49,803 nucleotides of DNA, taken from the NCBI GenBank assembly GCA_026914085.1, contig JAPPKG010000390.1:1-49803 (forward strand). Direction: 5' to 3'. The notes beneath the pieces are model-generated. The model was not told where the DNA came from. It ran no database searches and saw only the letters and a program-made list of their open reading frames with translations. Source of the DNA: Caldilineaceae bacterium (GTDB lineage: Bacteria; Chloroflexota; Anaerolineae; Caldilineales; Caldilineaceae). This document shows, one piece after another, positions 4,853 through 49,803 of this stretch; positions within the stretch are counted from its first letter, which is position 1, and each line of letters opens with the position of its first letter. Both the position numbers and the translations under genes were made by a program.

Positions 4853-4896
4853 AATTCCTGAGCCGGCCGCCGGGTAGCGGTCGGTCGGCCGGCGAT

Positions 4897-7944: not shown

Positions 7945-7957
7945 CAGCCCGTGGCAT

Positions 7958-10693: not shown

Positions 10694-10736
10694 GGGACGA
10701 CCGAACGGGGCCGCAGGGGAATTTCAGATTATCAAA

Positions 10737-11999: not shown

Positions 12000-12053
12000 C
12001 CGCCGGCGTTTTCGAGGCCTACGGTCCGAAAATCCGCGGAGCTGCGCGGCGCC

Positions 12054-15832: not shown

Positions 15833-15950
15833 TAGAACTAGGTTAGCGATCAATGCCCGCTAGGAAACCCACCCGTTTGGGCAGGTTGGCGCGTTGCAAT
15901 CTTCGGTACACTCTGGCAAGTGCGCAAGCCAGCGCTGATGGAGGCCGTAA

Positions 15951-25248: not shown

Positions 25249-25297
25249 ATATGTCCACTTAATTTAGGATTTGCTAGAAACATTAGGGTTTTTCCTC

Positions 25298-28355: not shown

Positions 28356-29114
28356 TTATCCAAGTGTCTTTTCATATTCCACCAGTTCGTAATGGGTCTG
28401 CATGTACCCGGCGACTCCACCCTTGAGGAAAGTGTATTCCCCGTCTGTCGAGGTATACACCTCATAGGGCGGGTGTTCTTCGGGGAGGTCGGTGTTGGTC
28501 GGCACCTGGAAGTGATGGGCATCGAACGTGCCGGCGCCGACGGTGATTTTTTCGTCACCCACATACACCAGGTCCAGACGCAGGGGGTAAAGCATCGGGC
28601 CGGTCGCACCTCTGTGGTCGGGCGAGCACAGCAGCAACTCGTCGATGCTTTGCCGGCCGGGACCCTTGCTGAGGTCGTAGTGGGAAAAGTGCCAGCTGTC
28701 GCAGGCGATGGCATGGTTCTGAAAAGACTTCAATGGGCCGTGTTTGTGGTCCATACGCTGGGACACCCGGCCTTCCAATGCGGTGTACGTCTCACACTCC
28801 GTATAGTCGTCATGGAATTTGAACCACCCCGTGCCCATGAACTTGTCGCCGACGGTAAGCCGGACGAAACAATCCTGGGGCATCCAGTTTTCGTCCACTG
28901 TGTAAGTGGCATCGCGCATAACGGAGGGGCGGTCGTCGATTTCCGTATGAACGCCAATGGTGCGGCCACCCCAACCGTACTTGGTAATGGTGAAGAACTC
29001 CCGGCCGCGTTCCTGATCCAGCCGTTCAGGTTTTTTCGACGTATAGGCGATCACACCCCGCACGACTGTGTGATCGATTTGCGTAACCGGCAGGCCCGTG
29101 CTCGCATCGTTCAT
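28356..29114 (-). CDS. Conserved hypothetical protein, tandem paralogue 2
   Basis: The ORF track extends to 29219. The ATG at 29114 is preceded by AGGAGG. About 252 aa. Confidence 0.7.
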   Translation of the reverse strand: MNDASTGLPVTQIDHTVVRGVIAYTSKKPERLDQERGREFFTITKYGWGGRTIGVHTEIDDRPSVMRDATYTVDENWMPQDCFVRLTVGDKFMGTGWFKFHDDYTECETYTALEGRVSQRMDHKHGPLKSFQNHAIACDSWHFSHYDLSKGPGRQSIDELLLCSPDHRGATGPMLYPLRLDLVYVGDEKITVGAGTFDAHHFQVPTNTDLPEEHPPYEVYTSTDGEYTFLKGGVAGYMQTHYELVEYEKTLG

Positions 29115-29229
29115 GTGGGTCCCTCCTGAAACCGGTTCCGACCGGTTCCTGTCATTGATTGATTGTTGCCGTGCGCCATCATACGCTGGCCGTTGCGGTT
29201 GTCTACGGACCCCATGCACGCACGACCTG

Positions 29230-30441
29230 TCAATCTACCGGGTAGAGTCGTGGAAACCAGCGTTCCACGACATCGAGTGGGAAGCCCAGGCGCACCGGAG
29301 CGCGCGGGCCCTTGGAAACGAGCAAGCCCTTCTTCAGCAGTGTGGAGAGTATCTGGCGGCTGCGCCGTTCCTGGTAGCCGGTGATTTCCGGCGCCCGTCC
29401 GCGTGCGAATTCTCCCACCAGAAGCGCCTCGCGAAGCAGCGAACCGGAGCGCGCGGGCAAGCGCCCGGCGGCCACTTCATCATCGGTGTAGAGTTTCATT
29501 CGTCGCAATAGTTCGCCGGGTAGCAGGAGCGAGCTCATGAACTCGACCTGGTCTATGCAAGTCCGCAAGAAGAATACGCAGAATTTTTCCAGCTGCGCTG
29601 CGGATCTTTCTCCACGGCCGTCGTAGTTACCCTGCCGGGGTGCGTCGGCGCCCGCGAGCCTGTTCTTGTATTCGGTCACGTTGCGGGCCAGCCCGCGCGA
29701 TATGGACCAGAGGCTGCTGCCGACGCCGGAGCGCAAAAGCATGGCGTGTGACATCAGTCGAGCCACTCGTCCGTTTCCATCGTAGAAGGGATGGATCCAC
29801 AGGAATCGATGGTGCGCCGCCCCTGCCGCGATGATGGTCCGCGTCCTGGACAGCCAGTTCCTTGTGTAGGCGGTTTCAAAATGATTCAGAAAGCGCGGCA
29901 GGTCGGCTGCGGGCGGAGCGATGTGCCGGCCCACCGCCACTCCGCCGTCGCGGATTTTTCCGGGCACAACGCGCACCTCCGCGCCTGTATCCGGGTTTTC
30001 GACCCGGAGCAACTCGTCGGGCAAACGTAGGCAGAATTCCTCGTGAATCCATTGGATATACGCGGTCGATACCGGCAACTCCTGGGGATCGTCACCGTTG
30101 TCAATCAATCTTTGCACTTCGATATGCGCGCGGGCTTCCTGCTGCAAAGCGCGCCTTTCGGGGTCCGGTGAGTACTTGTCCTCCAGCGCTGCTTCGATGT
30201 CTCGCGGGTGCGTGTTGTGTCCCTCGATGAGATTCGAGTAGTAGCAATTCATGGAGCGCACGAGGTCCCCGATGCTCTCTCGCACGGTATGTTGAATCTG
30301 CCCTTTAAGCGCGCTTGCCTTTGCGATGAGCTCAACGGCAAGGTCGGTCATGCCCGCCTTGTCGTCGCGGGGCAGCATGGGTTCCATCATTATGGGAAGC
30401 ATAGTGCCGGTCATTATGCCGGTTTGAATGCCGGAAGGCAA
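29230..30441 (-). CDS. Fic/DOC family protein (AMPylase-type) with C-terminal wHTH-like region
   Basis: Canonical Fic motif HPFYDGNGRVAR. The start is uncertain: TTG at 30441, several ATGs, and M31 at 30351. The first ~12 codons of the longest ORF overlap a repeat array. Confidence 0.85.
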   Translation of the reverse strand: MPSGIQTGIMTGTMLPIMMEPMLPRDDKAGMTDLAVELIAKASALKGQIQHTVRESIGDLVRSMNCYYSNLIEGHNTHPRDIEAALEDKYSPDPERRALQQEARAHIEVQRLIDNGDDPQELPVSTAYIQWIHEEFCLRLPDELLRVENPDTGAEVRVVPGKIRDGGVAVGRHIAPPAADLPRFLNHFETAYTRNWLSRTRTIIAAGAAHHRFLWIHPFYDGNGRVARLMSHAMLLRSGVGSSLWSISRGLARNVTEYKNRLAGADAPRQGNYDGRGERSAAQLEKFCVFFLRTCIDQVEFMSSLLLPGELLRRMKLYTDDEVAAGRLPARSGSLLREALLVGEFARGRAPEITGYQERRSRQILSTLLKKGLLVSKGPRAPVRLGFPLDVVERWFPRLYPVD

Positions 30442-35257: not shown

Positions 35258-35370
35258 CCCGAGGTGAAGGTCTTATCGAGTGGCGGGGCTCATTCCATTC
35301 TCAACGACTTGTAATCTGTCGGTGACCATTCTTCTTGCTTTCTTTTGCAAGTATTAATCAAAGCGTACTA

Positions 35371-36513
35371 ATGGCTAAGAAAAAGAACCAGCATTACGTT
35401 CCAGAGTTCTATTTAAAACGGTTTTCGCCCGACAAGGAAAAGAGAACGATTGGGATTTGGAACCTTAGACGCCGGCAGAAAATCATTGGGGCGAGTCTCA
35501 GGGACCAATGCAGTCTCGACTATTTCTATGGTAAAGACCTAATTCTCGAGGAATCATTTGAGGATTTGGAGAGGCTAGCGTCGGGCTTGCTGAAGCGAAT
35601 AGACAAAGCAGGCGCGCTGCCGGAACCGTGCTCCAATAGCCATGCCTTGCTATTGATCCACTTGGCAACGCAGTGGGCCCGTACAAAATACATGGCCGAT
35701 GCGGTGCAGGATATGGAAGAAAGCTTCTTGAATTACCTCTCGGAGTTGGATGAGCAAGAAGCAAAGCGGTTCAGGGATGACATAAGGCGCCACTTGGATA
35801 ATCCCGTGCACCTTTCGATCCTCATTCTTATGGAAATATTCCCGCTGCTCTTGGATCTTGATTGCAAAATTCTGGCAAATCAAACCGCGATTGAATTTGT
35901 CACTTCAGACAACCCAGTTGTTTTCTACAACCAGTTGTTTTCATTCCAAAAGAGCCAGAGCAATACCGGTATCGCAGTGAAGGGTCTTCAGATATTTTTT
36001 CCAATCGCACCAGGAAAAGTGTTGCTCTTCTATGATTCCACCGCGTATTCGGTCGGAAGAAGGAATCAGCCGATAGTTGAAGTATCAGATTCGCACGATG
36101 TGGACCAAATCAACCTCCTTCAGATGGCCAACTGTCAACACAATGTGTACTTTCGCGACACGTCGATCGATCTTGAACCGCTTGATGTGAGAGGACACCG
36201 ATTCCGTAGGAAGGCGATGTCCCGCTTGGAGACATTTCCAATTGGAAAGACAGAAAATGGATCTCAAGAACTTCTCGCTATGTCGATGAGCGATGTAGTA
36301 ACTAATCTGTCGCTTTCGTTTGTTCGGATTACACGGCGCACAAGGCGCTGGAGAGCGCGATTTCAGCGGCTGAAATCGCGTCCCGCGCTTGTAATACGCA
36401 ATCAGGCCTTGCATGATGAATTCAAGAAACATCAGGACAAGATACGCAACTTGGAAGTTGACTCGATGTCATTGTTCAAGCATCTATGCGCCAAATATCA
36501 TCAAAGGAAATAG
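35371..36513 (+). CDS. DUF4238 family protein
   Basis: The ATG at 35371 gives MAKKKNQHYVPEFYLKRFS, the N-terminal HYVPxFYLxxF signature I associate with DUF4238. About 380 aa, in a low-GC stretch. Confidence 0.65.
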   Translation: MAKKKNQHYVPEFYLKRFSPDKEKRTIGIWNLRRRQKIIGASLRDQCSLDYFYGKDLILEESFEDLERLASGLLKRIDKAGALPEPCSNSHALLLIHLATQWARTKYMADAVQDMEESFLNYLSELDEQEAKRFRDDIRRHLDNPVHLSILILMEIFPLLLDLDCKILANQTAIEFVTSDNPVVFYNQLFSFQKSQSNTGIAVKGLQIFFPIAPGKVLLFYDSTAYSVGRRNQPIVEVSDSHDVDQINLLQMANCQHNVYFRDTSIDLEPLDVRGHRFRRKAMSRLETFPIGKTENGSQELLAMSMSDVVTNLSLSFVRITRRTRRWRARFQRLKSRPALVIRNQALHDEFKKHQDKIRNLEVDSMSLFKHLCAKYHQRK

Positions 36514-36672: not shown

Positions 36673-37785
36673 TTGCGCTTTCAATCGATAGATGCCCTTC
36701 AGAAAACACTCGCAGATCAGGTGTTCCACTATGCGGTTGACCAAAAGAAGGCAGCGGGACGGGCGTTAGGTACATTGGTCGAAATCGTTACTTACTACAC
36801 CCTCCGTTCGTGGAATCTAACCGACCATATTGTGATTGAGCGTAGGGTGCCAGAATTTGCGAATCCCGATATTGAGCATAACGTTGAGTTCTCTCTTCAC
36901 CCGATGCGGAATCGATGGCGCGTAAAGATTGCGCCTCTATCTCTTCCTATTACGCCAGCCAAAATAAAACGTCTTATGCCACACCTTGCTGAGCATCCAG
37001 TCAAGTCAACTCAAGTTCTTAGCAGCGATTTCGTAAGGCGAAACGCCACTATTCTCCTGGAAACAGACGCCGGACCCATTGTCGCCAACATCGAATCCTT
37101 GAATGAGACACAATGCACCCTGGCCATATGCGAACTTTCGGCCGATCCTTTTGCAATTGTGGAATGCAAACGGGTAGGCGTGGAAGAGGGTATGAAGAAA
37201 GGCCCGCAGACTATCGAAAAAGCAAAGCAGGGTTCCTATGTTGCGCGGTCGGTTTCGTCTCTACAAAAAGTCAGGTTGAGAAATGGACAGTTCCAAGGTG
37301 TTATGGAGCAGAACGACGGGCAGTTCCAAACCGGACCTTACCTTGAGTTACAACGGAAGATAATCGATGCTCCGTCGCCAGGTGAGTTTCCTGGATTTAT
37401 TCTTACCGTCGGGGTTGTCAGCAATCATGGGAATTGGTTTACATCCGAAAACCACAACAAGGAGCTTCGGGTGCTAGCTCAGTCCTATGACTGGCTGCTA
37501 TTCCTTACTGATCAAGGACTTGCGAAATTCATCGGTGACCTACTGCTTAATCCTTCCGACGAAATGAAACCAGCTAGTGATGCTTTTCTTGTAAGTTACT
37601 CAGGTCAACGGGGGAAGAACAGATTTACAAAAGTCCGTATAGATGTTGAGGCCGATAAGACACTGCAACGTTATTTCTCACGACACAGTTCTGAAATTGA
37701 GGAGTGGTTCAATGTCATTTCTCCAACCGAAGGTACTCTTCATTCATTGCGCGATGACTTAAACACTCTGGCCAACCGTAGTTGA
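36673..37785 (+). CDS. Putative type II restriction endonuclease (PD-ExK)
   Basis: 370 aa. TTG start 5 nt after GGAGGA. Candidate catalytic motif SADPFAIVECKRVG. It lies 19 nt upstream of a DNA methyltransferase gene. Confidence 0.55.
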   Translation: MRFQSIDALQKTLADQVFHYAVDQKKAAGRALGTLVEIVTYYTLRSWNLTDHIVIERRVPEFANPDIEHNVEFSLHPMRNRWRVKIAPLSLPITPAKIKRLMPHLAEHPVKSTQVLSSDFVRRNATILLETDAGPIVANIESLNETQCTLAICELSADPFAIVECKRVGVEEGMKKGPQTIEKAKQGSYVARSVSSLQKVRLRNGQFQGVMEQNDGQFQTGPYLELQRKIIDAPSPGEFPGFILTVGVVSNHGNWFTSENHNKELRVLAQSYDWLLFLTDQGLAKFIGDLLLNPSDEMKPASDAFLVSYSGQRGKNRFTKVRIDVEADKTLQRYFSRHSSEIEEWFNVISPTEGTLHSLRDDLNTLANRS

Positions 37786-37804
37786 TTTTTTTGGAGCGAC
37801 CAGA

Positions 37805-38419
37805 ATGACAGCTGGACGGAACAACGCGCAATCAGTTAGCCAGCATTGGTGTACTCCGCCCAAGTATGTAGATGCGATACGGGAGTTCTTTGGCGGCGAA
37901 ATTGCGTTAGATCCTTGTTCCAATGAGCATTCCATTGTTAAGGCCACCATTGAGTACAGTTTGCCCAATTCTGACGGGCTGGAAAAGCAGTGGGATGCGT
38001 CTACAGTATTCGTCAATCCTCCCTATGGGCGGGACAGAGAGCGCGGCACTGGCATTCGGGATTGGCTTAGAAAATGCAGTGAAACACACTCGCAATACAG
38101 TTCTGAAGTGCTTGCTCTTGTCCCAGTGGCAACCAATACCCGTCATTGGAAAGATTTCGTGTTTGGTGCCGCTACCGCCGTTACGTTCCTCTACGATACT
38201 CGCCTTCGATTCCTAGTCAACGGAAAGGATTCTGGCAAAGGGGCCCCTATGTCATGTGCGATGGTCTACTGGGGTTCAAGATATAAGCGCTTTGAGAAGG
38301 TTTTTATCCGGTTTGGCGCTGTGGTGGACCTTCGACATTTGTGCGGCAAGCTTATCGGTGCACATGAGCGTCTTCCGCTGTTAGAAACTAGGCAGCGTGA
38401 CGTTTCAGTAGGCGTTTAG
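37805..38419 (+). CDS. Phage-type DNA N6-adenine methyltransferase (Dam, PF05869-like)
   Basis: 204 aa. QHWCTPPKYV, LDPC and VFVNPPYG (motif IV NPPY) in the order typical of the small phage Dam family. Confidence 0.75.
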   Translation: MTAGRNNAQSVSQHWCTPPKYVDAIREFFGGEIALDPCSNEHSIVKATIEYSLPNSDGLEKQWDASTVFVNPPYGRDRERGTGIRDWLRKCSETHSQYSSEVLALVPVATNTRHWKDFVFGAATAVTFLYDTRLRFLVNGKDSGKGAPMSCAMVYWGSRYKRFEKVFIRFGAVVDLRHLCGKLIGAHERLPLLETRQRDVSVGV

Positions 38420-38678: not shown

Positions 38679-39914
38679 CTAGGATGGATTCCTTGTTAGC
38701 AGATAAAAGGCGTAGGCTGCTGCAAGTGAGGCAGATGCGCCGATTAACCACGACAGAAAAACGGGCCATATCCGTGCAACGACTCCGGGTTTTCGTTGTG
38801 AAATGGTCACTACAAAGTTGGGTAAGAAGCGCCTATGCACCCATACAAGTATTGCAATGAGCCCAGATACAACAGCGACAAAAGACGCACGCCCAGAGAT
38901 CGTCTCCAATGCAGGAAGTAACACGAGCATTAGAAGCACGAACAACACGAGATTCAGACCCACTCCCCACTTTCTAATGTTTGTCACAAAATTCTTTTCG
39001 TGCTGGCGGAGTTGTCTTGCCAGTGCCTCCGCCTTGCCAATAACCCAAGATTCGTGAATGCCTTGAACCATCACATCATTGCGGCCTTCAGCATCAAGTT
39101 CAATAATTGCAAGTTTATTGATTCCATGGGCCTCCGGTTCCTGGATGGAAATCTTCAGGTAGCGAAGTTCGTTCAGACTCGTGGCCTGTTTCGCAAACTC
39201 TTCGAAGTATTGAGTGTTTTCGAGCCCGGCCGACTTGTAGGTGACAATTACGCGACCAACGGCAAAATCCCTTTGCGCCGCCTGAACGATTTCACGGATA
39301 TCGTCTGCGTAAAGCCGAACAGCGCCAACTGATTGACGAACTGTCCGTAGTTGTTCTGGTATTGCACTGTCGGGTCCCCTGCTTTGGTCTGCCTGAGGCG
39401 TGGCGTGTGGGTAAAGCTCAAAGGTGCCTGCAGTGCCAATCGAAGTTTTCCATTGCCCCCGGAAGTGGCCTTGGGGAGTGAGTGTCGCCTTGGCCACAAA
39501 CCTTCCGGTTTCTACTCCCGGAGCGGCTTGCTTCGGGTCGCCTTCAAATTCCAGTGTGCTTCCTTCGAGAGAGCCCGTGAATTCGTAGATTGACAGACCG
39601 TATAAGGTATCCAACAGACGGAGCGTCCCGCGCACGCCCGCTTCTGTTGAATCCAGTTCTATAAAAAGATTACCCGTGTTTGTGCCAAAAACACGACCGG
39701 TCCAGAGCCTTCCTATTTCCGCCATGCGGGCTCTTCTTGTTGCGACTTCTTTGGGAATGCGCCAGCCAAAGCTACTTGACTGAGTGCTAATTGGAATCGG
39801 CAAGAATTGTAGCTTACGTGAGGAAACATCCCTGGCATCGTCGCCGAAAACGCTCCATGCTTTAGGGATCCTTATACCGCTAATGAACGAGTCTAAAACA
39901 CCTAGAATACCCAA
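38679..39914 (-). CDS. Hypothetical membrane-anchored protein (soluble N-terminal ~300 aa + 3 C-terminal TM helices)
   Basis: 411-aa ORF from a TTG at 39914; alternative ATG at 39725 (MAEIGRLW...). Hydrophobic C-terminal segments (LNLVLFVLLMLVLLPAL, FVAVVSGLIAILVWV, VFLSWLIGASASLAAAYAFYLL). No recognisable catalytic motif. Confidence 0.6.
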   Translation of the reverse strand: MGILGVLDSFISGIRIPKAWSVFGDDARDVSSRKLQFLPIPISTQSSSFGWRIPKEVATRRARMAEIGRLWTGRVFGTNTGNLFIELDSTEAGVRGTLRLLDTLYGLSIYEFTGSLEGSTLEFEGDPKQAAPGVETGRFVAKATLTPQGHFRGQWKTSIGTAGTFELYPHATPQADQSRGPDSAIPEQLRTVRQSVGAVRLYADDIREIVQAAQRDFAVGRVIVTYKSAGLENTQYFEEFAKQATSLNELRYLKISIQEPEAHGINKLAIIELDAEGRNDVMVQGIHESWVIGKAEALARQLRQHEKNFVTNIRKWGVGLNLVLFVLLMLVLLPALETISGRASFVAVVSGLIAILVWVHRRFLPNFVVTISQRKPGVVARIWPVFLSWLIGASASLAAAYAFYLLTRNPS

Positions 39915-39940
39915 CTGCCTAAAGCAACCAGTTCCTGCCT

Positions 39941-40864
39941 ATGCCTGTACCCGGTTTTCAACAGCTAATGCTTCCGGCCCTTCGAGCCCTCTCGGATGGA
40001 AAGGAAACCCCTATATCCATAGTCCGCGAGCGCATTGTCGCGTCGGAAGGCTTTACGCCATCTGATTTGAGCGAAATGCTCCCAAGCGGCCGACAGACGG
40101 TCTTTACAAACCGGGTAAGTTGGGCGGTTATCTTCATGGAGCGTGCTGGTCTTATTCAGAGGTCCAGCCGGGGCGTTTATCAGCTCGCTGACGAAGGAAG
40201 AAGTGTTTTGCAGCGCGCACCAAAGCTGATAAACCTCGAACTGCTCAGCAAGTATCCATCGTTTGTCGAATGGCGTAAACGCGCTAATGAGTCATCGGGG
40301 ACGACTAAGGATGAATCGGAAAAGGATCAGGAGATCACAGATACGCCAGAAGAATTGATGGATCGTGCCGACCTGCAGTTGCGCGCAGAATTGCAGTCTG
40401 ATGTGCTGGAGAGAATCCGTAGCGCTCCGCCAGCGTTTCTGGAACGGGTTGTCGTGGACCTGCTAGGCGCTATGGGTTACGGTGGTGGCGACCCCTCAAT
40501 GGGGCGGGTTACTGGTGGTGCGGGCGATGGCGGCATTGATGCTGCCATCAGGGAAGACGCACTGGGCTTGGACGAAGTTTATGTGCAGGCAAAGAAGTAT
40601 GCGGAAGAGAACACTGTGGGTACGGGTGCTCTGCGTAATTTTGCGGGGGCAATTGATGCAGTTGGCACTAGTAAGGGCGTATTCGTGACCACCTCGACTT
40701 TCACCAAAGCCGCAAGGAAATATGTACAACAGAGTCCAAAACGGATAGTGCTGATTGATGGAGAAGAATTAGCTCGCCTAATGGTTGTGCATGACGTTGG
40801 TATGCGTATCCAGCATCAATACAAGATCAGACGGATAGACGAAGACTATTTCGCTCCGGAATAG
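39941..40864 (+). CDS. mrr: Mrr-family type IV restriction endonuclease
   Basis: 307 aa. N-terminal Mrr_N-type winged helix (LMLPALRAL...FTNRVSWAV..ME.AGLI) and C-terminal catalytic core (FERVVVDLLGAMGYGG...GDGGIDAAI...VYVQAKKY). Confidence 0.85.
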   Translation: MPVPGFQQLMLPALRALSDGKETPISIVRERIVASEGFTPSDLSEMLPSGRQTVFTNRVSWAVIFMERAGLIQRSSRGVYQLADEGRSVLQRAPKLINLELLSKYPSFVEWRKRANESSGTTKDESEKDQEITDTPEELMDRADLQLRAELQSDVLERIRSAPPAFLERVVVDLLGAMGYGGGDPSMGRVTGGAGDGGIDAAIREDALGLDEVYVQAKKYAEENTVGTGALRNFAGAIDAVGTSKGVFVTTSTFTKAARKYVQQSPKRIVLIDGEELARLMVVHDVGMRIQHQYKIRRIDEDYFAPE

Positions 40865-40926
40865 TACTGACAAATAGCCAGGCCCCAGTTGTCGGGTGAT
40901 GCCGAGTTGGCGCGAGCGGATGAGCC

Positions 40927-42180
40927 ATGACCTCTGCACTAACCTGGCTTGACTATTCGGAGCGCGATAGACGGCGCGCGATGGATGTCATTGACCTTTT
41001 TCGGGAGACTGGAACGGTTGACGAACTTGGGCTGGCTAGCATTCGCGACAGCTACTCCGATCTTTTCTTTCCCGGCACCAGCACAATTCAGACTCGCGCG
41101 TGTTATTTCCTGCTCATTCCATGGACGTTCCAGCGGATCGAGCGCTTGCGGATCCCATCTAGTAAGGCGGAGGCCAGGGCTCGACGGGCGGAGCTGAACC
41201 TTAATCAACGGATGCAATTGCAGGGCGACAGCCGCGGTGTGTTCGGATCTCAGGCCGGTATGACTTTGAAACGGCTTCCAAGCGAAGTTTATTGGGGCGG
41301 GCTAGGAAGCTGGGGAATTCGTACATTTTCCCGCCACATGTGGGCGTACTTCCGATCTCTTGACGGCTTCTACGGGCGCTACAAACAATTTCGGAATACC
41401 GCGCCCGAACCGGAGGGCAGGATCGCGCCTCCGACAAACTGGCACCCGCACGTCCCTGCACCTCCACCCGGATTCCCGTACGAGAACATCTCTGTCGCTT
41501 TGCGCCACGAGGACGCCGAGTACCTACGCGACCGGATACAGACACGGCATCCCGAAAGCCTGTTGGCTGTACTCGCAAATCGTGCAAATCTGGAGGACCT
41601 CAACGCTGATTGGCCTTGGCAACTTTCCCAGCTCAGCGAGGTTTCACCGGTTCTGCGGGAGCAGCTTCATGACGCTGAGTTGTTTGCTATCTGCATACAG
41701 GGAGCGGCGCTGCTATACAACCTCATGCTTTCGGAACTACAAGGGCATGAGGGGCGAATGGAAACCTACCAGAGCGAATTGGAAGCGTGGGCTGCTGACT
41801 TGGAGGCGATCGGATCGCACGTGGCGGACTGGCAATTGGACGGTGTTTGGAACATTGTGCGGGCGCAAGGTCGTTCGGTTGGTTTTCCGACGCGAACCTT
41901 CGTGGAGCGCTGGATCGCAAATCTCAAGCAAGGTGGTTCCGGAGCTGTCACGCGCGACAACTCCAAAGCCAGAGCGCTCGTACGGGATCGCGAGACCCAG
42001 CTCAAGCGCGGTCGCGCGAGGCTGGTGAGCCCACGACACCTTGAACTGTGGGGCGGACAATCCGGCACAGGGCGATTGAATTACCGGTGGGGCGAAACCC
42101 CAATGAGTGGAACCAGGATGATTCTCAGGGACATCTTCGACGGACTGGAACGGGGCGAGGACGATGCTGGGGACGCGTGA
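40927..42180 (+). CDS. Uncharacterised protein, first gene of the PLD-helicase cassette (DUF6361-like by recollection)
   Basis: 417 aa with no catalytic motif recognised. Conserved-looking N-terminus LTWLDYSERDRRRAMDVIDLFRETGTVDELGLASIRDSYSDLFFPGTSTIQTRACYFLLIPW. The 3' end overlaps the next gene by 17 nt. Confidence 0.6.
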   Translation: MTSALTWLDYSERDRRRAMDVIDLFRETGTVDELGLASIRDSYSDLFFPGTSTIQTRACYFLLIPWTFQRIERLRIPSSKAEARARRAELNLNQRMQLQGDSRGVFGSQAGMTLKRLPSEVYWGGLGSWGIRTFSRHMWAYFRSLDGFYGRYKQFRNTAPEPEGRIAPPTNWHPHVPAPPPGFPYENISVALRHEDAEYLRDRIQTRHPESLLAVLANRANLEDLNADWPWQLSQLSEVSPVLREQLHDAELFAICIQGAALLYNLMLSELQGHEGRMETYQSELEAWAADLEAIGSHVADWQLDGVWNIVRAQGRSVGFPTRTFVERWIANLKQGGSGAVTRDNSKARALVRDRETQLKRGRARLVSPRHLELWGGQSGTGRLNYRWGETPMSGTRMILRDIFDGLERGEDDAGDA

Positions 42181-44071
42181 GCGGACGCTGCTTCTTGAGA
42201 GCTTACGCCCACCCGCGGGCTACCGGTTGCGTCGCGCCGTGGGGACCAGCTACACACTGGATCTAATGGCACTTCTCACGGCCCCTCTCGCTTTCACTTT
42301 CTTCGACGCGCACGACGAGGCGGGCGCCCCCGCGAATGATCCAATAGCGCTACTTGAGGCTCTGCGCAGACACGCCAAGAATGTCACGCTCTTTTGCCAG
42401 GCTGGCGCCATCGCGGTGCCCAAGCCTGAGCAGACCCTGCTGGCCTATCTCGAAGGCTCTGTCGTCGAAGTTCAACCGCCCCGCCGGGAAGGAATTTTTC
42501 ACCCCAAGCTATGGGTACTCGCCTTCGAAGGGGAGGAGGCACCGGTGATTTATCGTGTGCTTTGCCTTTCCCGAAACCTGACTTTCGCCCGATCCTGGGA
42601 TACTTGCCTTTCTCTTGAGGGTCCGCTCACCCAGAGGCAGCGCGGTTACGGGAGAAACAAGCCGCTGGCCGAACTGCTTTTAGCCCTTCCGGGGCTCGCG
42701 GCAAGACCGGTTCGATCGGATGTGCGCGCAGACATTGAGCGCATGGCCGACGAGGTGCGGAGGGTGGATTTCCAACCGCCCCCGCCGTTCACCAGCTTTC
42801 GCCTGCACCACTTCGGGTTGGGGCGCAGGCGGCAATGGCCATTGCCGGCTTCTTCGCGGAGTCTCGTGATATCGCCGTACCTGTCCGGTTCTGTCATTCA
42901 ACAGCTTACTGAGCAGCATGGTCTCCAGATATTGCTCTCCAGACCGGAAGCGTTCGAAGAAGTGCTCCGACATTCGGGGGGCGAGGCGCTCCCCGAAACG
43001 TGTTACGTGATGTCGCCGGGCGCCGAACTCGATGCGCAGGAGGCAGATGAAAAGGATGCGCAGGAGACGAATGGATCGCCTCGTGTCGCTGAGCAGGTCG
43101 ACCTGGCTGGCCTCCACGCCAAACTGTTCCTGTTCGAGACTGGCCGGGACGTCAGGCTTTTCACCGGCTCGGCAAATGCGACTACCGCAGCATTCCAAAT
43201 CAACGTGGAAGTGCTCGTTGAGCTCTTCGGCAGAAAGAAGGACTGCGGTATCGCATCGCTGCTCGGTTCCGAAGACGATTCGCGGCAAGAAACTCTCCTT
43301 TCGCTCCTCCAGGCATACAAACCTCCATTCGGCGAAATAACTGACGAGGATCTTGGGAAGGTTTTGGAGAGGAAGGTTGAACGGTTGGCTCGAGATCTTG
43401 CATCGTCGCGTCTTACCGCGACCGTCCGTGAGGCGAACGTGGAACAGCGGTGGGATATCGCATTATCGGGGGAGTTTCCAGAGTTTCCGGGGGACGCGAC
43501 GGTAACGGTCTGGCCGGCCACGCTCTCCCCAAGTCACGCACAGCGGATCGAGAACTCGCCCCGGCAAAAAGGTGCATCGGGTGGCGGACCCCAAGAGATA
43601 GCAACCATCCAGGGCGTGTCATTTGAGGCACTGAGCGCATTTTTTGCTTTCGAGATCTGCCTGCGCGATGGACCGGCATTGGCTCGGCAGCGGTTCGTAG
43701 TGACGGTCGAGTTGATCGGGGCACCCGAGAACCGAAAGGAGCGCCTGCTTCAGTCGCTTCTGAAGGACCGGCGTCGTGTACTTAGGCTGCTCCTGTTGAT
43801 CCTGATGGACGAAGGTACGGATGTGTCAGCTTTTGTGCAGGCAGCAAGCCGTGACGAAACCAAGTTGGATGGGGCGTTCGGAGGATGGCGTGAGGAGGCC
43901 CTGCTGGAGGCTCTCCTGCAGAGTCTCAGCCGTAACCCTGACCGGATCGACGAGGCCGATCGGCTCATTTCGGACCTTGGGAGTACGCCGGAAGGGAGAG
44001 ATCTGCTGCCGGAGGGTCTGAGCGAGATTTGGGAACCGGTGTGGGCGGCGCGTGGGGCGCAAAAATCATGA
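42164..44071 (+). CDS. Phospholipase D-family (double HKD) nuclease-like protein
   Basis: 635 aa. HKD-like motif 1 is FHPKLWVL...CLSRNLT. Canonical motif 2 is LHAKLFLFE......FTGSANAT. Confidence 0.8.
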   Translation: MLGTRERTLLLESLRPPAGYRLRRAVGTSYTLDLMALLTAPLAFTFFDAHDEAGAPANDPIALLEALRRHAKNVTLFCQAGAIAVPKPEQTLLAYLEGSVVEVQPPRREGIFHPKLWVLAFEGEEAPVIYRVLCLSRNLTFARSWDTCLSLEGPLTQRQRGYGRNKPLAELLLALPGLAARPVRSDVRADIERMADEVRRVDFQPPPPFTSFRLHHFGLGRRRQWPLPASSRSLVISPYLSGSVIQQLTEQHGLQILLSRPEAFEEVLRHSGGEALPETCYVMSPGAELDAQEADEKDAQETNGSPRVAEQVDLAGLHAKLFLFETGRDVRLFTGSANATTAAFQINVEVLVELFGRKKDCGIASLLGSEDDSRQETLLSLLQAYKPPFGEITDEDLGKVLERKVERLARDLASSRLTATVREANVEQRWDIALSGEFPEFPGDATVTVWPATLSPSHAQRIENSPRQKGASGGGPQEIATIQGVSFEALSAFFAFEICLRDGPALARQRFVVTVELIGAPENRKERLLQSLLKDRRRVLRLLLLILMDEGTDVSAFVQAASRDETKLDGAFGGWREEALLEALLQSLSRNPDRIDEADRLISDLGSTPEGRDLLPEGLSEIWEPVWAARGAQKS

Positions 44072-47000
44072 ACTCACGGGAAGCGGGCGAGCGTCCGGAC
44101 ACTAGCGCTGTTCTCAAAGGCCTCAAGGGATTTCAGCGCAACACTGTGGAATACGCTTTCGAGCGTCTCTACAAGGCTTCGGACTCGACACGGCGTTTCC
44201 TGGTGGCCGACGAGGTTGGGCTTGGGAAGACGCTGGTGGCGCGAGGAGTCATCGCGAAGGCAATCAATCATTTGTGGGAAGGGACGCACAGGATCGAGCG
44301 GATCGACATCGTCTACATCTGCTCCAATGCCCAGATCGCCAGACAGAATGTTCGCCGTCTACAGATTGGTGACAGTCGGTTTGTCCGATCCGACCGATTG
44401 ACTCTGCTTCCGCAGGTAATCCACAACCTTAAGGGGAACAGGGTCAACTATCTCGCATTCACACCCGGGACATCTTTCGATCTGAGGAGTAGCTTGGGCC
44501 GCCGGGACGAGCGCGTCCTTCTTTATCACATGGTTCAGCGAGTCTGGCCCGATCGCCGGACTGGCCCCAAGAACCTTTTTCAAGGAAACGTGCGGAATAC
44601 AAATCACTTTCGATGGGAGTTGAAGGAGTTTAAGCAGCAGCACCACATTGACGCGGATCTTGCCGCAGACTTCGAACACCGTTTGCACGAGGAAGGAGAG
44701 ACCTTCCGGGAAATCTACGAGGACTTGTGCAACCGATTCCGGCGGAGTGGACGCCGGGTCCCGTGGGACGATCGCCGCGGGCAAATTGCAATGATCGGAA
44801 AACTTCGTTCGATGCTGGCTGAGGTCTGCGTTACGGCGCTGGAGCCCGATCTCGTGATCCTGGACGAATTCCAGCGCTTTAAGGATCTTCTGGATGGAGA
44901 GGATTCGACTGCAGAATTGGCGAGGCAGCTCTTCAACTATGCCAATCCTGAGGAGAATTCGGATGTTCGTCTTCTCCTGCTCTCCGCCACGCCCTACAGG
45001 ATGTATACGCTCCGCCATGAAGAGGCCGAAGACGATCACTACCGGGACTTTCTGCGAACCGTGGAGTTCATCGACTCCGGCCTGAAGGAGAGTGGAGAAC
45101 TCCGTAGGCTCCTGGACGACTACAGACAAGCGATGTACCGGATCGAGTACGGGACGGAGCGGCTTGAACAAATCAAAGGACGGATCGAGCGGCAACTCCG
45201 CCGTGTCATGTCTCGGGTCGAGCGATTGGGAGCATCCACCGACGTGCATGGGATGCTGCGTGAGGTCCCTTGTGCCGGACTTCAACTCACTGCTGAAGAT
45301 ATTGGGGACTTTCTGGCACTGGATAAGATCGGCCACGAAGTGAGACAGCCGCAGGTCCTTGAGTATTGGAAGTCGGCCCCCTATCTGCTGAGCTTCATGG
45401 ACGACTATAAGCTGAAAACCGAGGTGGTCGAGGGTTTGGGAATTTCCCCGGAGAGCAACCTTCAGAGGCTTCTGGCCAACAGTGGGCGTGTATCTCTTTC
45501 TTGGGAAGAAGTGGAAGCCTATTCGAAGCTCGATCCAGCCAACGCCCGCCTGCGCAGCCTCCTTGAGTGGATGGAGCGTGGCGAAGCGTGGAAATTGCTT
45601 TGGCTGCCCCCTTCACTTCCCTATTACGCGCAGTCCGGACCCTGGCGAAAGGCCCGCGAGCAGCAGCTTTCCAAGCGTCTGATCTTCTCGACCTGGGCGG
45701 TGGTACCGAAGGCCATTGCGAGCGTGGTGAGCTACGAGGTAGAACGACGGGTCTTCCAGCGCTTCAATAACTCGATCCGCAATACGCTCGAGGAGCGCAA
45801 GAGACGCCGCCCCCTGCTTCGCTTTGCGTACTCAAATGAGCGCCTTACGGGCATGCCCGTGCTGGGAATCCTTTATCCGAGTCCCAGCCTGGTTGAGCTG
45901 GCAGGCCCTGTTCCGGTGCAGGAAGGCGAGGCGACCCTGGCCGCTGTGGTTTCCCGTGCCCGGGAGCGGCTCGATCCTTTGCTCGGCAAACTTACGGAGC
46001 CGTATCTCCGTGCGGATCGTGAAGACGAAAGTTGGTACTGGGCGGCCCCGATCCTCCTCGATCTCACGAGATACGGCGAGTCGACCGAGAATTGGTTTGA
46101 TCGGCGGGATCTTCCAAGCATTTGGAATGGGGCGCAGCAGGATGAAGAAGAGGGCTCCCGGTGGGTGGATCATGTTAGCGAAGCGAAGCGGCTGATTGAC
46201 GCGGGAATCGGTGCGGCGCTCCGCGGATCGCTGGATTTAGGACGGCCTCCAGAGGATCTCACGGAGACTCTTGCCACCAGGGCAGTAGGCGGGCCTGCAA
46301 CAAGCGCGCTCAGAGCTCTCACACGTGCCTGTCACCCGCTATCTCCCGCGGATATCGGGGCTCGTGATGCCGCCGCCCGAATCGCGTGGAGCTTTCGGAC
46401 GCTATTCAATCTCCCGGAGGCAATGGCACTAGTCCGCGGGGAGCGACTTAAGGATGAGACGCCCTACTGGCGGCAGGTCGTGGACTACTGCGCTACGGGC
46501 AACCTCCAGGCCGTGCTGGACGAATACGTGCATACGCTACGAGATTTCGAGGGGTTGTTCGCTGCCGATGACGAGGAGGCCTGGAGCAAGCTAGCCGACG
46601 CTATAACGAGTGCGTTGGCGATTCGAACCGCGGTGCCGCGCGTGGACGCGATTCGACTCGTCGATGGGAAGGCCAATATCGAGCACCACAGCCTCCGCAA
46701 CCACTTTGCAATGCGCTTCGGGACTCAGGAGCGAGACGACGGTAAGGCAGGAGCGCGCGAAGGACAAGTTCGACAGGCATTCAACTCGCCATTCTGGCCC
46801 TTTGTTCTCGCCTCCACTTCCGTCGGCCAGGAGGGGCTGGACTTCCACGCCTACTGCCATGCCGTAATGCACTGGAATCTACCCTCAAACCCCGTCGACC
46901 TTGAGCAGCGAGAGGGTCGGGTTAACCGCTACAAGGGACACGCCGTGCGAAAGAATGTTGCCGCCAAACACGGTCACTCCGTCCTCGGTGATGGCTCGGC

Positions 47001-47331
47001 GGACGTTTGGGACGCTCTTTTCCAAGTCGCTTCCGCGCATTCGTCGAATGGCAATGGTCTCGTTCCCTATTGGCTCTTCCCGCCCGCCGACGAAGGTGCA
47101 CACATCGAACGACACGTCCCCGCGCTTCCCTTGAGCCGCGACGCCGATCAATTCAGAGCGCTGAAGCGATCTCTTGCTGTGTACCGGATGGTGTTCGGTC
47201 AGCCGCGGCAGGACGATCTGATGACCTTCCTCTTGGAACGCTGCCGCCCTGAATTTTTAGAGGAAATAAAGCCTTTGTTGCAGATCGATTTGTCACCAAG
47301 ACCGACTGATCCTTACCCCGCATCCAGGTAA
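44068..47331 (+). CDS. SNF2/DEAD-like superfamily 2 helicase-related protein
   Basis: The ATG at 44068 forms an ATGA overlap with the PLD stop. Motif I ADEVGLGKT, motif II VILDEFQRF, motif III LLLSATPY, motif VI QREGRVNRY. There is a large insertion between the two RecA-like lobes. About 1087 aa. Confidence 0.8.
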   Translation: MNSREAGERPDTSAVLKGLKGFQRNTVEYAFERLYKASDSTRRFLVADEVGLGKTLVARGVIAKAINHLWEGTHRIERIDIVYICSNAQIARQNVRRLQIGDSRFVRSDRLTLLPQVIHNLKGNRVNYLAFTPGTSFDLRSSLGRRDERVLLYHMVQRVWPDRRTGPKNLFQGNVRNTNHFRWELKEFKQQHHIDADLAADFEHRLHEEGETFREIYEDLCNRFRRSGRRVPWDDRRGQIAMIGKLRSMLAEVCVTALEPDLVILDEFQRFKDLLDGEDSTAELARQLFNYANPEENSDVRLLLLSATPYRMYTLRHEEAEDDHYRDFLRTVEFIDSGLKESGELRRLLDDYRQAMYRIEYGTERLEQIKGRIERQLRRVMSRVERLGASTDVHGMLREVPCAGLQLTAEDIGDFLALDKIGHEVRQPQVLEYWKSAPYLLSFMDDYKLKTEVVEGLGISPESNLQRLLANSGRVSLSWEEVEAYSKLDPANARLRSLLEWMERGEAWKLLWLPPSLPYYAQSGPWRKAREQQLSKRLIFSTWAVVPKAIASVVSYEVERRVFQRFNNSIRNTLEERKRRRPLLRFAYSNERLTGMPVLGILYPSPSLVELAGPVPVQEGEATLAAVVSRARERLDPLLGKLTEPYLRADREDESWYWAAPILLDLTRYGESTENWFDRRDLPSIWNGAQQDEEEGSRWVDHVSEAKRLIDAGIGAALRGSLDLGRPPEDLTETLATRAVGGPATSALRALTRACHPLSPADIGARDAAARIAWSFRTLFNLPEAMALVRGERLKDETPYWRQVVDYCATGNLQAVLDEYVHTLRDFEGLFAADDEEAWSKLADAITSALAIRTAVPRVDAIRLVDGKANIEHHSLRNHFAMRFGTQERDDGKAGAREGQVRQAFNSPFWPFVLASTSVGQEGLDFHAYCHAVMHWNLPSNPVDLEQREGRVNRYKGHAVRKNVAAKHGHSVLGDGSADVWDALFQVASAHSSNGNGLVPYWLFPPADEGAHIERHVPALPLSRDADQFRALKRSLAVYRMVFGQPRQDDLMTFLLERCRPEFLEEIKPLLQIDLSPRPTDPYPASR

Positions 47332-47423
47332 TCGTTGTAACGAATCAAGCAATAGCGGAAAACGTCACACTGTATTCCAAGCTCGCAGGCGCACCATCGG
47401 CACGGCCAGGCGTTTGATGGGGA

Positions 47424-47927
47424 TTACCGTGAAAGCCCGTCAACAATCCATGGAACGATGTAGCGCCAGGATAATAGGGTCAGCCCAATCGACACCCAAT
47501 TGGAGTACAAGTCGGCGTCCCTCCTTACCAGTATCAACGCTTTGTTCTTAGATATCTTCAGTGGTATTGAATACTCAGGAGTTTCATCGCGTTCAATGGA
47601 ACCATCCTCCTTGAGGTGTTGGTACCTCAGTACATGCCAGTAAATCTGTGCAACTATGGCGGCACAGCCAAGAACGACGACTCCCCATTCTCCCGTTGGC
47701 CTTATGCCGAACAGATTCAGTGAGTGCAGGTCGGCGCCAGCCAGCCCGGCAAGGAACAGAACTCCAGAAAGCACGATGATGTTGCGCCGGCAGCTTCTGG
47801 AACCTTGCGGCTCAACCAGTTTTTCCCGTGGGTCCTTTGCGCGGAGACGATCCTTGGGCACGTACACGCGTTCCAGGCCAATAAACAAGAATAGGAAGCG
47901 GCGAAAGTGCATGAACCGACTTATCAA
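47424..47927 (-). CDS. Small membrane protein (about 3 TM), downstream partner of the ATPase-TOPRIM gene
   Basis: 167 aa from a TTG at 47927 (ATG alternative at 47912), 18 nt after the upstream gene stop. Hydrophobic segments IIVLSGVLFLAGLAGA, VVVLGCAAIVAQIYW, WVSIGLTLLSWRYIVPWIV. Confidence 0.55.
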   Translation of the reverse strand: MISRFMHFRRFLFLFIGLERVYVPKDRLRAKDPREKLVEPQGSRSCRRNIIVLSGVLFLAGLAGADLHSLNLFGIRPTGEWGVVVLGCAAIVAQIYWHVLRYQHLKEDGSIERDETPEYSIPLKISKNKALILVRRDADLYSNWVSIGLTLLSWRYIVPWIVDGLSR

Positions 47928-47945
47928 TTGGCCCTGCTAGCCTGA

Positions 47946-49691
47946 CTACGTCTTAGCCTTCGCCCAGACTTGTTCGACGAACTCACGAGCTTTCTGCAGC
48001 TCATTATCGGCTTCCAAGTCGCGTTCTTCCAAAACCTTCTCGACGAATCCCGGGCCATGCGCGCCAATGCTTCGGCAGAAGCCCTCAAGCTCACCAACCG
48101 GCACTATCCAAAGCCTATGATCACTGCACTTCGCACACAGTTTGTCAAAATGCCTGATCGACTCCCCTGGCGAGAGCGCACTGCGCCCGCTACTCTTCAC
48201 GGCGCTCCAGGGTGAAGCGCTTTTCAAGATTCGTTTGATCGCCCGTTCCCGTTCTTTCGGGAATTCTCCTCTTCCTGCGACACCTTTAAGCTCCTTCGTA
48301 ATTTGTTTCGCAACCTGCTCGGCATCTAATGGGGGCCGTTGATTGACTACTTGATCGGCAACGGCGCTCCTGTGTGTTTTCACTTGTTCCCAATTTCCTC
48401 CCAACTTCTCGAATAGATTCCTAAAGAGGTCTTCGTCATTGAGAATATCCATATCAGCAATGACGGAAACCGGCACATCTAGCGAACGTAGCGCATCGGC
48501 GAGTTTCGCCATTCGATGTTTGCCAGATGCGTGAACGAACAGCACGTCTGGCCGGCGATCACCGGAAATTGACGGAAGGCTCAGTAAGGACTGATAGAAC
48601 ATACAGTCGGCATCACCTTCACAGATAACGACATGCTCGAAGAAAACGCCGTCGAAGACACGCGAGAAGCGAGCAAGAGTGTCCTTTGTTATGGATTCAG
48701 TCTTTTCCTTGCTCAATTCCTTAATGGGGTTCACATCCCCTTCTCGGCGTAGGCGGACGATACGAACCTTGTCAGAGCCGCCCTCGATCAACCCTTCCAG
48801 AACATCCGTGTTGTGTGTGGCTATGAAGAGTTGTGAGGTTCCCGTTTTGCTTTCTGCGATATAGCGGGCAAGGAGCCTCGCTTGAGGCGGATGTAGGAAT
48901 GCCTCAGGCTCATCAAGGAATTGGATCGAATGAGTACCGGCTGCCAAAACGTTGAGCGTGACCGCTGCAAAACTGCGCATTCCGTCGCCTTGTGCTTCAA
49001 GCGGAACATTCGTGTCTAGCAGAGCATCAACAAACTCCTTCGAGAGTTCATCCTTGCCAGTAGGAACAACAGGCTTTTCACCAACGTACAGCGGGAACCT
49101 ATTTCCACCGGCACGGAATGGAGTAAGGTCCTCACCAAACGCATGCTTGAATTTCTTGCTTATGTCCTTGGACAAAGTTTCGTCCATTAGCAGTAAGTGG
49201 ATCGGGTGGGACGGTATATCTTGGAAGAGCGCAATACCTGGCGCTGCATTCGAATCCGTTATTCGACTTTCCGTAGCCAGTTGCTTTGCGAAGAATGGAG
49301 CTACCGGATGCCGGTCGGTCAGATTGTCGAAGTAACTTAGATTCGTATGGTGGATGTTGTACCCGATCCCACCGTAGTGGAGGTTTGCACTGTCACCAGT
49401 TTTTTGCGCCTTGGCTTCTAGGTATGCTCGCAGATCATCCTTTGTCCCCTTCTTCGTCATCTCAGCACTTTTAACAACAAGTCCGGGCTGGGATCTCGCA
49501 ACCCATGCTTCCAATTCACGCAAAGCCGCGCTTTTTCCCGCGTTGTTTGGTCCTACGAATACAACTATGTCATCCTCATCCAGTGTTAGCGTGGTGCCAT
49601 CGGAGAACGTGACCGTAGAGAAGAAGAGCTTAGGACGCTGGAGTTCCGACTGCTCGTTCGGAGCTTCGCCCTCTTGGTTTTCGCTTGGCAT
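47946..49691 (-). CDS. ABC-type ATPase fused to a TOPRIM/DUF4435-like domain (OLD-family / fused PARIS AriAB-like)
   Basis: 581 aa. Walker A GPNNAGKS, signature-like QGDGMRS, Walker B IQFLDEPEAFLHP, H-loop IATHN. C-terminal VVICEGDADCMFY ... VSVIADMDIL matches a TOPRIM Glu plus DxD arrangement. Confidence 0.7.
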   Translation of the reverse strand: MPSENQEGEAPNEQSELQRPKLFFSTVTFSDGTTLTLDEDDIVVFVGPNNAGKSAALRELEAWVARSQPGLVVKSAEMTKKGTKDDLRAYLEAKAQKTGDSANLHYGGIGYNIHHTNLSYFDNLTDRHPVAPFFAKQLATESRITDSNAAPGIALFQDIPSHPIHLLLMDETLSKDISKKFKHAFGEDLTPFRAGGNRFPLYVGEKPVVPTGKDELSKEFVDALLDTNVPLEAQGDGMRSFAAVTLNVLAAGTHSIQFLDEPEAFLHPPQARLLARYIAESKTGTSQLFIATHNTDVLEGLIEGGSDKVRIVRLRREGDVNPIKELSKEKTESITKDTLARFSRVFDGVFFEHVVICEGDADCMFYQSLLSLPSISGDRRPDVLFVHASGKHRMAKLADALRSLDVPVSVIADMDILNDEDLFRNLFEKLGGNWEQVKTHRSAVADQVVNQRPPLDAEQVAKQITKELKGVAGRGEFPKERERAIKRILKSASPWSAVKSSGRSALSPGESIRHFDKLCAKCSDHRLWIVPVGELEGFCRSIGAHGPGFVEKVLEERDLEADNELQKAREFVEQVWAKAKT

Positions 49692-49746: not shown

Positions 49747-49803
49747 TGGTGGGCCGTGAGGGAATCGAACCCGCAACCAATGGATTAAGAGTCCACTGCT
49801 CTA
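49747..49803 (-). tRNA. tRNA-Lys (anticodon CUU), 3' part only (truncated by window edge)
   Basis: The reverse complement reads ...TAGAGCA GTGGA CTCTTAA TCCAT TGGTT GCGGG TTCGATT CCCTC ACGGCCC A CCA. It has an anticodon stem-loop with CTT, a T-loop TTCGATT, an acceptor 3' strand and an encoded CCA. It closely parallels E. coli tRNA-Lys architecture. Confidence 0.8.

Follow-up and report, generated by a model that had tools for sequence, protein, structure and literature searches.

The Azaca anti-phage system (Millman et al. 2022) is defined in the literature by a helicase, a PLD protein and a DUF6361 protein, and its biochemistry has been described by Ragucci et al. (2025; bioRxiv 10.1101/2025.07.10.664194). 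In that work, the Bacillus system BmAzaca gave >10^6-fold protection against T4, and T4 dsDNA was cleaved only when ZacA, ZacB and ZacC were present together. Cleavage was abolished by mutation of the nuclease site or of the ZacC Walker A motif. ZacA was required for cleavage, and mutants in its conserved residues were unaffected. The Bacillus system favoured T4 DNA containing glucosyl-hydroxymethylcytosine. Co-isolation of associated subunits upon purification of a tagged subunit was reported for every system purified, BmAzaca included. Hachiman (HamAB) and other nuclease-helicase complexes resemble Azaca in having a helicase-bound nuclease and a helicase that controls DNA cleavage, but Hachiman has a different nuclease fold and only two components. 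Furthermore, the HamB ATPase motifs are dispensable for in vitro cleavage, unlike the Walker A motif of ZacC (bioRxiv 10.1101/2025.07.10.664194).

The window analysed here, that is the whole stretch of 49,803 nt, carries at 40927-47331 a three-gene cassette that is very probably an intact Azaca (ZacA-ZacB-ZacC) anti-phage system located in a defence island. The three ORFs, zacA (40927-42180, 417 aa), zacB (42164-44071, 635 aa) and zacC (44068-47331, 1087 aa), each start with ATG and lie adjacent and co-directional on the forward strand in A-B-C order. The zacB ATG at 42164 lies inside ...gacgATGctggggacgcgTGA, and the stop codon of gacgATGctggggacgcgTGA, which belongs to zacA, occupies 42178-42180. 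Read from the forward strand, the zacA/zacB overlap is 17 nt (42164-42180) and the zacB/zacC overlap is the 4-nt ATGA (44068-44071), exactly as reported in the initial annotation of this DNA. With start codons in the related loci picked by a heuristic, 29 of 50 of these loci had an A-B overlap of exactly 17 nt and 39 of 54 had a B-C overlap of 4 nt, making these the commonest junctions. Since both overlaps recur in related loci, they are not due to chance. The mechanical ORF list starts zacC at TTG 44029, giving 1100 aa; the prevalence of the 4-nt B-C overlap supports ATG 44068 as the start. The cassette also has its own composition, as had been noted earlier, with a GC content of 0.59; the neighbouring mrr gene is at 0.53, the left part of the island at 0.54, the right flank at 0.52 and the core at 0.63. 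A scan of 39.5-47.95 kb for promoters and terminators gave counts that were not above those of shuffled sequence.

All three proteins matched the PADLOC models for ZacA, ZacB and ZacC end to end. ZacA matched at E = 2.8e-122 (residues 1-408 against profile positions 1-395 of 396), ZacB at 7.3e-168 (1-633 against 1-584 of 586) and ZacC at E = 0 with 1146.8 bits (11-1077 against 5-1016 of 1019). The initial annotation had proposed a nuclease-helicase anti-phage module that might be Azaca ZacABC, and both suggestions are supported by these matches. What they remove is the novelty of the triad: because all three genes match the HMMs of a described system over their full length, the function stands and the novelty falls. 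The locus is real and, judged from sequence, probably functional, and the system is already published rather than new. NCBIfam lacked models for both ZacA and ZacB. No solved structure related to any of the three proteins emerged when their sequences were searched against the PDB; ZacA and ZacC were without hits, and the ZacB hit was insignificant (E = 0.44).

The first gene product, which had been described as DUF6361-like, matched Pfam DUF6361 (PF19888) at 4.9e-63 with 213.9 bits, far above the cut-off of 25. Its most conserved block, LFFPGTSTIQTR (residues 46-57; 41062-41097, forward strand, coordinates checked by translation), contains F48, P49 and R57, which were invariant among 128 sequences, and G50, T51 and T53-T56, which were nearly so. 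An AF2 model built with 128 diverse sequences was all-alpha, with a pLDDT of 88.6 and a pTM of 0.86; an earlier run with 17 close sequences had reached a pLDDT of 47.6 and was discarded. Foldseek found no relatives of this fold in the PDB (best E 1.7, TM <=0.16) or in BFVD (best E 0.76). At 50% identity and E<=1e-3 the ZacA family comprised 3247 clusters, indicating that the family is large. The earlier proposal that this protein acts as the sensor or specificity subunit goes further than the published data, where ZacA is needed for cleavage but mutation of its conserved residues has no effect.

The canonical form of the PLD motif is HxK(x)4D, and the initial annotation assigned one degenerate and one canonical HKD motif to the second protein. 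On the forward strand, translation and family alignment place a first HxK...SxN half-site (H113, K115, S136, N138) at 42497-42583, comprising FHPKLWVL (42497-42520) and SRNLT (42569-42583), and a second HxK...GSxN half-site (H318, K320, G335, S336, N338) at 43112-43183, comprising LHAKLFLFE (43112-43138) and GSANAT (43166-43183). The motifs lie where they had been placed, but their grading needs adjusting. In the first half-site the Asp position is A120 and varies across the family, yet H, K and N are conserved in 64 of 64 sequences and S in 60 of 64. The second is near-canonical, as all five listed residues are conserved in 64 of 64 sequences but E325 stands in place of the Asp, at a position occupied by E in 38 family members, by R in 11 and by D in 7. 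ZacB thus has the catalytic HxK pairs of a PLD-type nuclease (H113/K115 and H318/K320, each 64/64), although the Pfam PLDc_2 match, at 23 bits, fell short of the cut-off of 27.

ZacC contains, on the forward strand and by translation, the SF2 motifs I (DEVGLGKT, 44209-44232), II (DEFQ, 44863-44874), III (SATP, 44983-44994) and VI (QREGRVNR, 46906-46929). The core residues GKT 53-55, DEFQ 266-269, SAT 306-308 and QRxGRxxR 947-954 were each present in 62 of 62 family members, the first two giving the Walker A and B motifs of the Azaca SF2 helicase/ATPase. Motif III and the C-terminal lobe are about 590 residues apart, in agreement with the insertion of several hundred residues described previously together with the four motifs. 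The description of this protein as SNF2-like stood in part. It applies only to a stretch of some 60 residues in the C-terminal lobe, which resembles DrmD, DpdE and RapA. Pfam assigned DEAD at 29.8 bits and Helicase_C at 28.3 bits, and no SNF2 family appeared at E<=0.01.

The three genes also occur together elsewhere, with synteny conserved across roughly 70 genomes that represent many bacterial phyla as well as some archaea. Of the 77 species-representative loci listed, about 70 kept the order, strand and overlaps of ZacA-ZacB-ZacC, and the A-B-C order was present in nearly all 77 where the extent of the contig allows. The same arrangement was kept in seven metagenome contigs with close relatives. 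The loci span Gemmatimonadota, Acidimicrobiia, Acidobacteriota, Chloroflexota, Cyanobacteria, Bacillota, Proteobacteria and archaea. The present copy is 57-94% identical to its metagenome and MAG relatives, and the spread of this clade across many phyla suggests horizontal transfer. As in described Azaca, a DUF6361 protein, a PLD-type nuclease and an SF2 helicase are encoded in this order with conserved overlaps, and the nuclease retains the catalytic H/K pairs and the helicase the residues of Walker A, DEFQ and motif VI. The present copy differs in belonging to a distant clade, with ~26-33% identity to Bacillota-clade homologues (L062 and others), a range taken from a scan of 80 loci in which B. 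massilioanorexius, the species of the validated system, does not occur. Its ZacB and ZacC exceed the PADLOC profiles by ~50-70 residues, and its host is an uncultured bacterium of Gram-negative type. The 6.4-kb cassette can be annotated as Azaca (zacA, zacB, zacC), and as a distant, intact copy it may serve as a comparative homologue. A reader working on the sequence alone was able to recover a real defence system.

Other systems also pair a PLD protein with a helicase, and the locus could in principle be Mokosh, DISARM with DrmC/DrmD, Dpd or a new Azaca-like family. ZacC residues ~900-990 did match the DrmD, DpdE, DrmA, BrxH and PDC-M27C models (E 1e-7 to 3e-21), and NCBIfam returned DpdE and DrmD matches, but these cover only ~45-100 residues, the C-terminal helicase motifs, of models of 500-1200 residues, and the NCBIfam scores were far under the cut-offs (DpdE 65.1 against 500; DrmD 57.9 against 610). 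Mokosh (MkoA/B/C: SF1 RNA helicase and PLD nuclease) likewise exemplifies nuclease-NTPase defence with a PLD-type nuclease and a helicase, but its helicase is SF1 rather than SF2, it has no DUF6361 partner, and no Mko model was matched by any of the three proteins at E<=0.01. DISARM has a DrmA-DrmB-DrmC core accompanied by a methyltransferase, DrmC being its PLD protein. ZacC has C-terminal helicase motifs similar to those of the SNF2-like helicases DrmD of DISARM and DpdE of Dpd, but the similarity is limited to ~60 residues, and the locus is without DrmB (DUF1998), a dedicated methyltransferase and the dpd 7-deazaguanine genes. No DrmB or DrmC match was found, the DrmD and DrmA matches of ZacC were partial (45-100 residues) and the DpdE match was confined to residues 895-966. 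With Mko, DrmB, DrmC and DrmM models unmatched and the Zac models matched end to end, another PLD-plus-helicase system or a new family is contradicted and has next to no likelihood. It is also extremely unlikely that the cassette is a decaying, non-functional Azaca remnant. Disruption does occur among the relatives, as fragments (L043, L053, L061) or interrupted genes (L015, L019, L021, L048), but in the copy at 40927-47331 all three ORFs are full length relative to the profiles, every catalytic residue that is invariant in the family is retained and the conserved overlaps are intact.

As an intact Azaca system, the cassette would act as follows. One operon with overlapping reading frames would yield the three proteins, the overlaps seen here suggesting translational coupling. 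ZacA, ZacB and ZacC would assemble into a complex, as shown for the Bacillus homologue. ZacC, the SF2 ATPase, would spend ATP to engage the invading dsDNA, an ATP dependence carried over from the homologue, and may translocate on it. ZacB would cut the invading DNA, cleavage having been shown for the homologue. PLD nucleases generally have a pseudo-dimeric active site, and the two HxK...(S/T)xN halves of ZacB are predicted to form one such site within a single polypeptide. ZacA, predicted to be all-alpha, would be required for activity, most likely by acting as a scaffold or by selecting the DNA. By likeness to BmAzaca, the present copy probably protects against phage and cleaves phage DNA.

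As described in the initial annotation, the cassette is flanked by an mrr gene (39941-40864, forward strand), which encodes a type IV restriction enzyme (PADLOC mREase_IV, 1.7e-79, full length; Pfam Mrr_N and Mrr_cat), and by an OLD-like ATPase-TOPRIM gene (47946-49691, reverse strand; PADLOC and Pfam profile searches). The low-GC island around it also holds AbiE and a SoFic-like gene. That the island is tRNA-adjacent was only partly confirmed, as Rfam detected at 49750-49803 (reverse strand) a tRNA that is cut off where the window ends, scoring 35.5 bits (gathering score 29), but ARAGORN found none. No att-like direct repeat matching the tRNA end was found between 24 and 49.8 kb, only short chance pairs, so repeats do not mark the borders of the island.

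Positions 39879-47337 of the window matched 8953-16411 of a metagenome contig (L002) as a single 7460-bp block with 85.8% nucleotide identity, extending from 62 nt upstream of mrr to 6 nt past the zacC stop, with unrelated flanks. This shared block, together with the gap of only 62 nt between mrr and zacA, raises the question of whether the functional unit comprises four genes, Mrr-ZacA-ZacB-ZacC, which might for example jointly recognise modified DNA. A truncated Mrr_cat gene immediately 5' of zacA in L084, a different Mrr_cat protein two genes upstream in Palauibacter loci, and the preference of BmAzaca for modified T4 DNA (bioRxiv 10.1101/2025.07.10.664194) are consistent with such a unit, which we nevertheless consider very unlikely. 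Of the 80 loci searched, only four (L001, L002, L004, L006) had a relative of the present Mrr close to zacA, and upstream of zacA in close relatives there was instead an ion-channel gene (L083), nothing (L085) or integrases (L086). Mrr is moreover a complete stand-alone type IV enzyme, its GC content differs from that of ZacABC (0.53 against 0.59), and three proteins suffice for BmAzaca (bioRxiv 10.1101/2025.07.10.664194). Mrr was rejected as a conserved fourth component on these locus counts and alternative upstream genes; it is not part of Azaca but was co-transferred with it in the present lineage. It is very unlikely, though conceivable, that the Azaca of this lineage travels and perhaps cooperates with Mrr as a four-gene cassette against modified DNA, with ZacA reading the modification or selecting the target. 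If true, either Mrr cooperation or modification reading by ZacA would add mechanism to the sensing step of Azaca.

Many of the relatives with 57-94% identity bear names pointing to sponge symbionts, and much of this lineage appears to be derived from such symbionts.

The three proteins of the cassette were compared with the PADLOC profiles, and all three were matched end to end by the subunits of Azaca, a published anti-phage system (ZacABC). Gene 1 matched ZacA (2.8e-122; residues 1-408 on profile positions 1-395 of 396), gene 2 matched ZacB (7.3e-168; residues 1-633 on 1-584 of 586) and gene 3 matched ZacC (E=0, 1146.8 bits; residues 11-1077 on 5-1016 of 1019). Pfam placed gene 1 in DUF6361 (213.9 bits, cut-off 25) and assigned DEAD and Helicase_C to gene 3; the sole Pfam match of gene 2, to PLDc_2, was sub-threshold. 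NCBIfam offered no model for ZacA or ZacB, and its models DpdE, DrmD and RapA resembled ZacC over a short C-terminal stretch only, at scores far under their cut-offs. None of the three proteins matched the PADLOC models for Mokosh, DrmB or DrmC. In the literature, Azaca consists of a helicase, a PLD nuclease and a DUF6361 protein, exactly the triad found here. The initial annotation had proposed a defence module and had named DUF6361 and Azaca tentatively; the module is supported and both names proved right. Judged by its protein sequences, the cassette is an already known system, Azaca, callable automatically by PADLOC. Its identity to relatives in the Bacillota clade is no higher than 26-33%. 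Novelty is confined to three features: the spread of a divergent Azaca clade across phyla, the occasional pairing of Mrr and Azaca in one block, and a ZacA fold without assignment.

The ORF list and direct reading of the junctions bore out three co-directional genes with short overlaps. On the forward strand, zacA (40927-42180, 417 aa) overlaps zacB (42164-44071, 635 aa) by 17 nt, with the zacB ATG at 42164 inside the end of zacA and the zacA stop at 42178-42180. The junction of zacB and zacC is an ATGA at 44068-44071; zacC (44068-47331) encodes 1087 aa counted from this ATG, and in the mechanical ORF list it begins farther upstream, at TTG 44029. All motifs previously quoted were recovered at their sites by translation: FHPKLWVL, SRNLT, LHAKLFLFE and GSANAT in ZacB, and DEVGLGKT, DEFQ, SATP and QREGRVNR in ZacC, where motif III and the C-terminal helicase lobe are about 590 residues apart. 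The second HKD motif of ZacB had been called canonical and the first degenerate. The catalytic His and Lys are kept in both halves, but the canonical Asp is present in neither (A120 in the first, E325 in the second), and the second motif is thus near-canonical. When 62-64 members of the family were aligned, the residues found invariant in ZacB (H113, K115, N138, H318, K320, G335, S336 and N338) and ZacC (G53-K54-T55, D266-E-F-Q269, S306-A-T308 and Q947-R-x-G-R-x-x-R954) were all kept here.

The only Azaca biochemistry that we found is that of Ragucci et al. on a Bacillus (Bm) system (bioRxiv 10.1101/2025.07.10.664194). Bm Azaca protected more than 10^6-fold against T4 and preferentially degraded T4 dsDNA in vitro. 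Cleavage required ZacA, ZacB and ZacC jointly and was lost upon mutation of the nuclease site or of the ZacC Walker A motif; mutation of conserved ZacA residues left complex formation and cleavage unchanged. When a tagged subunit was purified, the subunits associated with it were recovered too, as the authors state for every purified system, and the stoichiometry of the Bm complex was not determinable (bioRxiv 10.1101/2025.07.10.664194). Complex formation, ATP dependence and cleavage are thus established for the homologue, and by homology we propose a like scheme for the window copy. Co-translated ZacA, ZacB and ZacC would assemble into a complex, ZacC would engage foreign DNA in an ATP-dependent manner and may translocate on it, and the two ZacB halves would jointly form a single PLD-type active site that cuts the DNA. 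ZacA may be an essential scaffold or selector.

No PDB chain was related by sequence to ZacA, ZacB or ZacC. AlphaFold2 gave a pLDDT of 47.6 for ZacA with 17 close sequences, and a confident all-alpha model of residues 29-413 (pLDDT 88.6, pTM 0.86) with 128 diverse sequences. Foldseek found no significant relative of this model in the PDB (best E 1.7, TM <=0.16) or in BFVD (best E 0.76), and the ZacA fold is therefore left without assignment, which is a trait of the family and not peculiar to this locus.

A ZacA-relative profile search revealed at least 77 distinct zacA loci in species-representative genomes. They include Candidatus Palauibacter (Gemmatimonadota; 78% identity), Acidimicrobiia, Acidobacteriota, Chloroflexota, Bacteroidota, Alpha- and Gammaproteobacteria, Cyanobacteria, Bacillota (about 29% identity) and the archaea Natronomonas and Methanobrevibacter. 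ZacA forms a large family, with 3247 clusters (50% identity) at E<=1e-3 and 2214 at E<=1e-10. When the window proteins were used in tblastn, the order ZacA, ZacB, ZacC on one strand was observed at nearly every locus whose contig permits it, and the departures were evident fragments or interrupted copies. The overlaps are conserved too: with start codons picked heuristically, zacA and zacB overlapped by 17 nt in 29 of 50 loci, and zacB and zacC by 4 nt in 39 of 54. Each of seven metagenome contigs with close relatives carried the zacABC triad, with matching overlaps from the gene callers in most. The clade of ZacA proteins 57-78% identical to that of the window (loci L004-L037) comes from MAGs of at least seven phyla, and many have names indicative of sponge symbionts (Candidatus Palauibacter, Candidatus Spongiisociaceae). 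This distribution suggests that one Azaca lineage recently spread horizontally within one habitat type.

The DNA of the window is also deposited as scaffold_3064 of ENA ERZ23495530. From ~25.1 kb to the window end it forms a lower-GC island, and the cassette is part of this island. The cassette itself is GC-richer than its flanks, as had been noted (0.59 vs 0.53 in mrr, 0.54 in the left part of the island and 0.52 in the right flank; 0.63 in the first 25 kb). Directly past the GC drop, at the left edge, is a complete AbiEi/AbiEii toxin-antitoxin abortive-infection pair (25271-26714, forward; PADLOC 5e-70 and 6.8e-112). On the reverse strand follow two tandem paralogous ORFs of 244 and 287 aa (27594-28328 and 28356-29219), which have a 110-nt stretch of 76% identity in common and no Pfam or PADLOC match, and a SoFic-like Fic protein (29230-30441; PADLOC 6.6e-27, Pfam Fic 3.2e-16). 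A DUF4238 protein (35335-36513) is encoded just upstream of a 370-aa ORF and a Dam-like N6-adenine methyltransferase (36673-38419, forward; PADLOC REase_II 4e-06, weak; Pfam Dam 1.4e-14), which from their sequences may form a small restriction-modification pair. Next, on the reverse strand, is an ORF (38679-39914) that matches no family and whose C-terminal part is hydrophobic. The cassette was correctly placed between mrr (39941-40864) and an OLD/GajA-like gene (47946-49691, reverse; 581 aa, ABC-ATPase and TOPRIM by PADLOC/Pfam). Downstream of the latter, in the same orientation, is an ORF of ~162-167 aa, hydrophobic by eye (together 47424-49691), and the two may be a two-gene defence module, a pair for which PADLOC has no model. 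The description of the island as tRNA-adjacent was partly upheld: Rfam detected a tRNA cut by the window end (49750-49803, reverse; 35.5 bits, model positions 19-71), but ARAGORN reported no tRNA in the window. The 3' end of this tRNA points into the island, as expected of a tRNA-targeted island; the search for att-like repeats within the window gave none, and the window ORFs scanned included no integrase.

Window positions 39879-47337 and positions 8953-16411 of L002, another metagenome contig, form a single 7460-bp block of 85.8% nucleotide identity. The block holds exactly mrr and zacABC and the flanking DNA is unrelated, so all four genes moved together in this lineage. The Mrr proteins of the two contigs are 92% identical, above ZacA, ZacB and ZacC at 84-88%, and at a further locus (L084) a truncated Mrr_cat gene occupies the same position relative to zacA. 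Mrr was considered as an Azaca partner and set aside: of the 80 loci searched, only 4 have a relative of this Mrr close to zacA, and in three close relatives of the cassette (L083, L085 and L086) the upstream genes are different ones. We therefore regard Mrr as a neighbour that is independent of Azaca. At L085 a phage P4 cII-like gene (7618-8079) adjoins Azaca, and at L086 Azaca directly follows two tyrosine integrases (3330-5757), so that Azaca may ride satellite-like or integrative elements.
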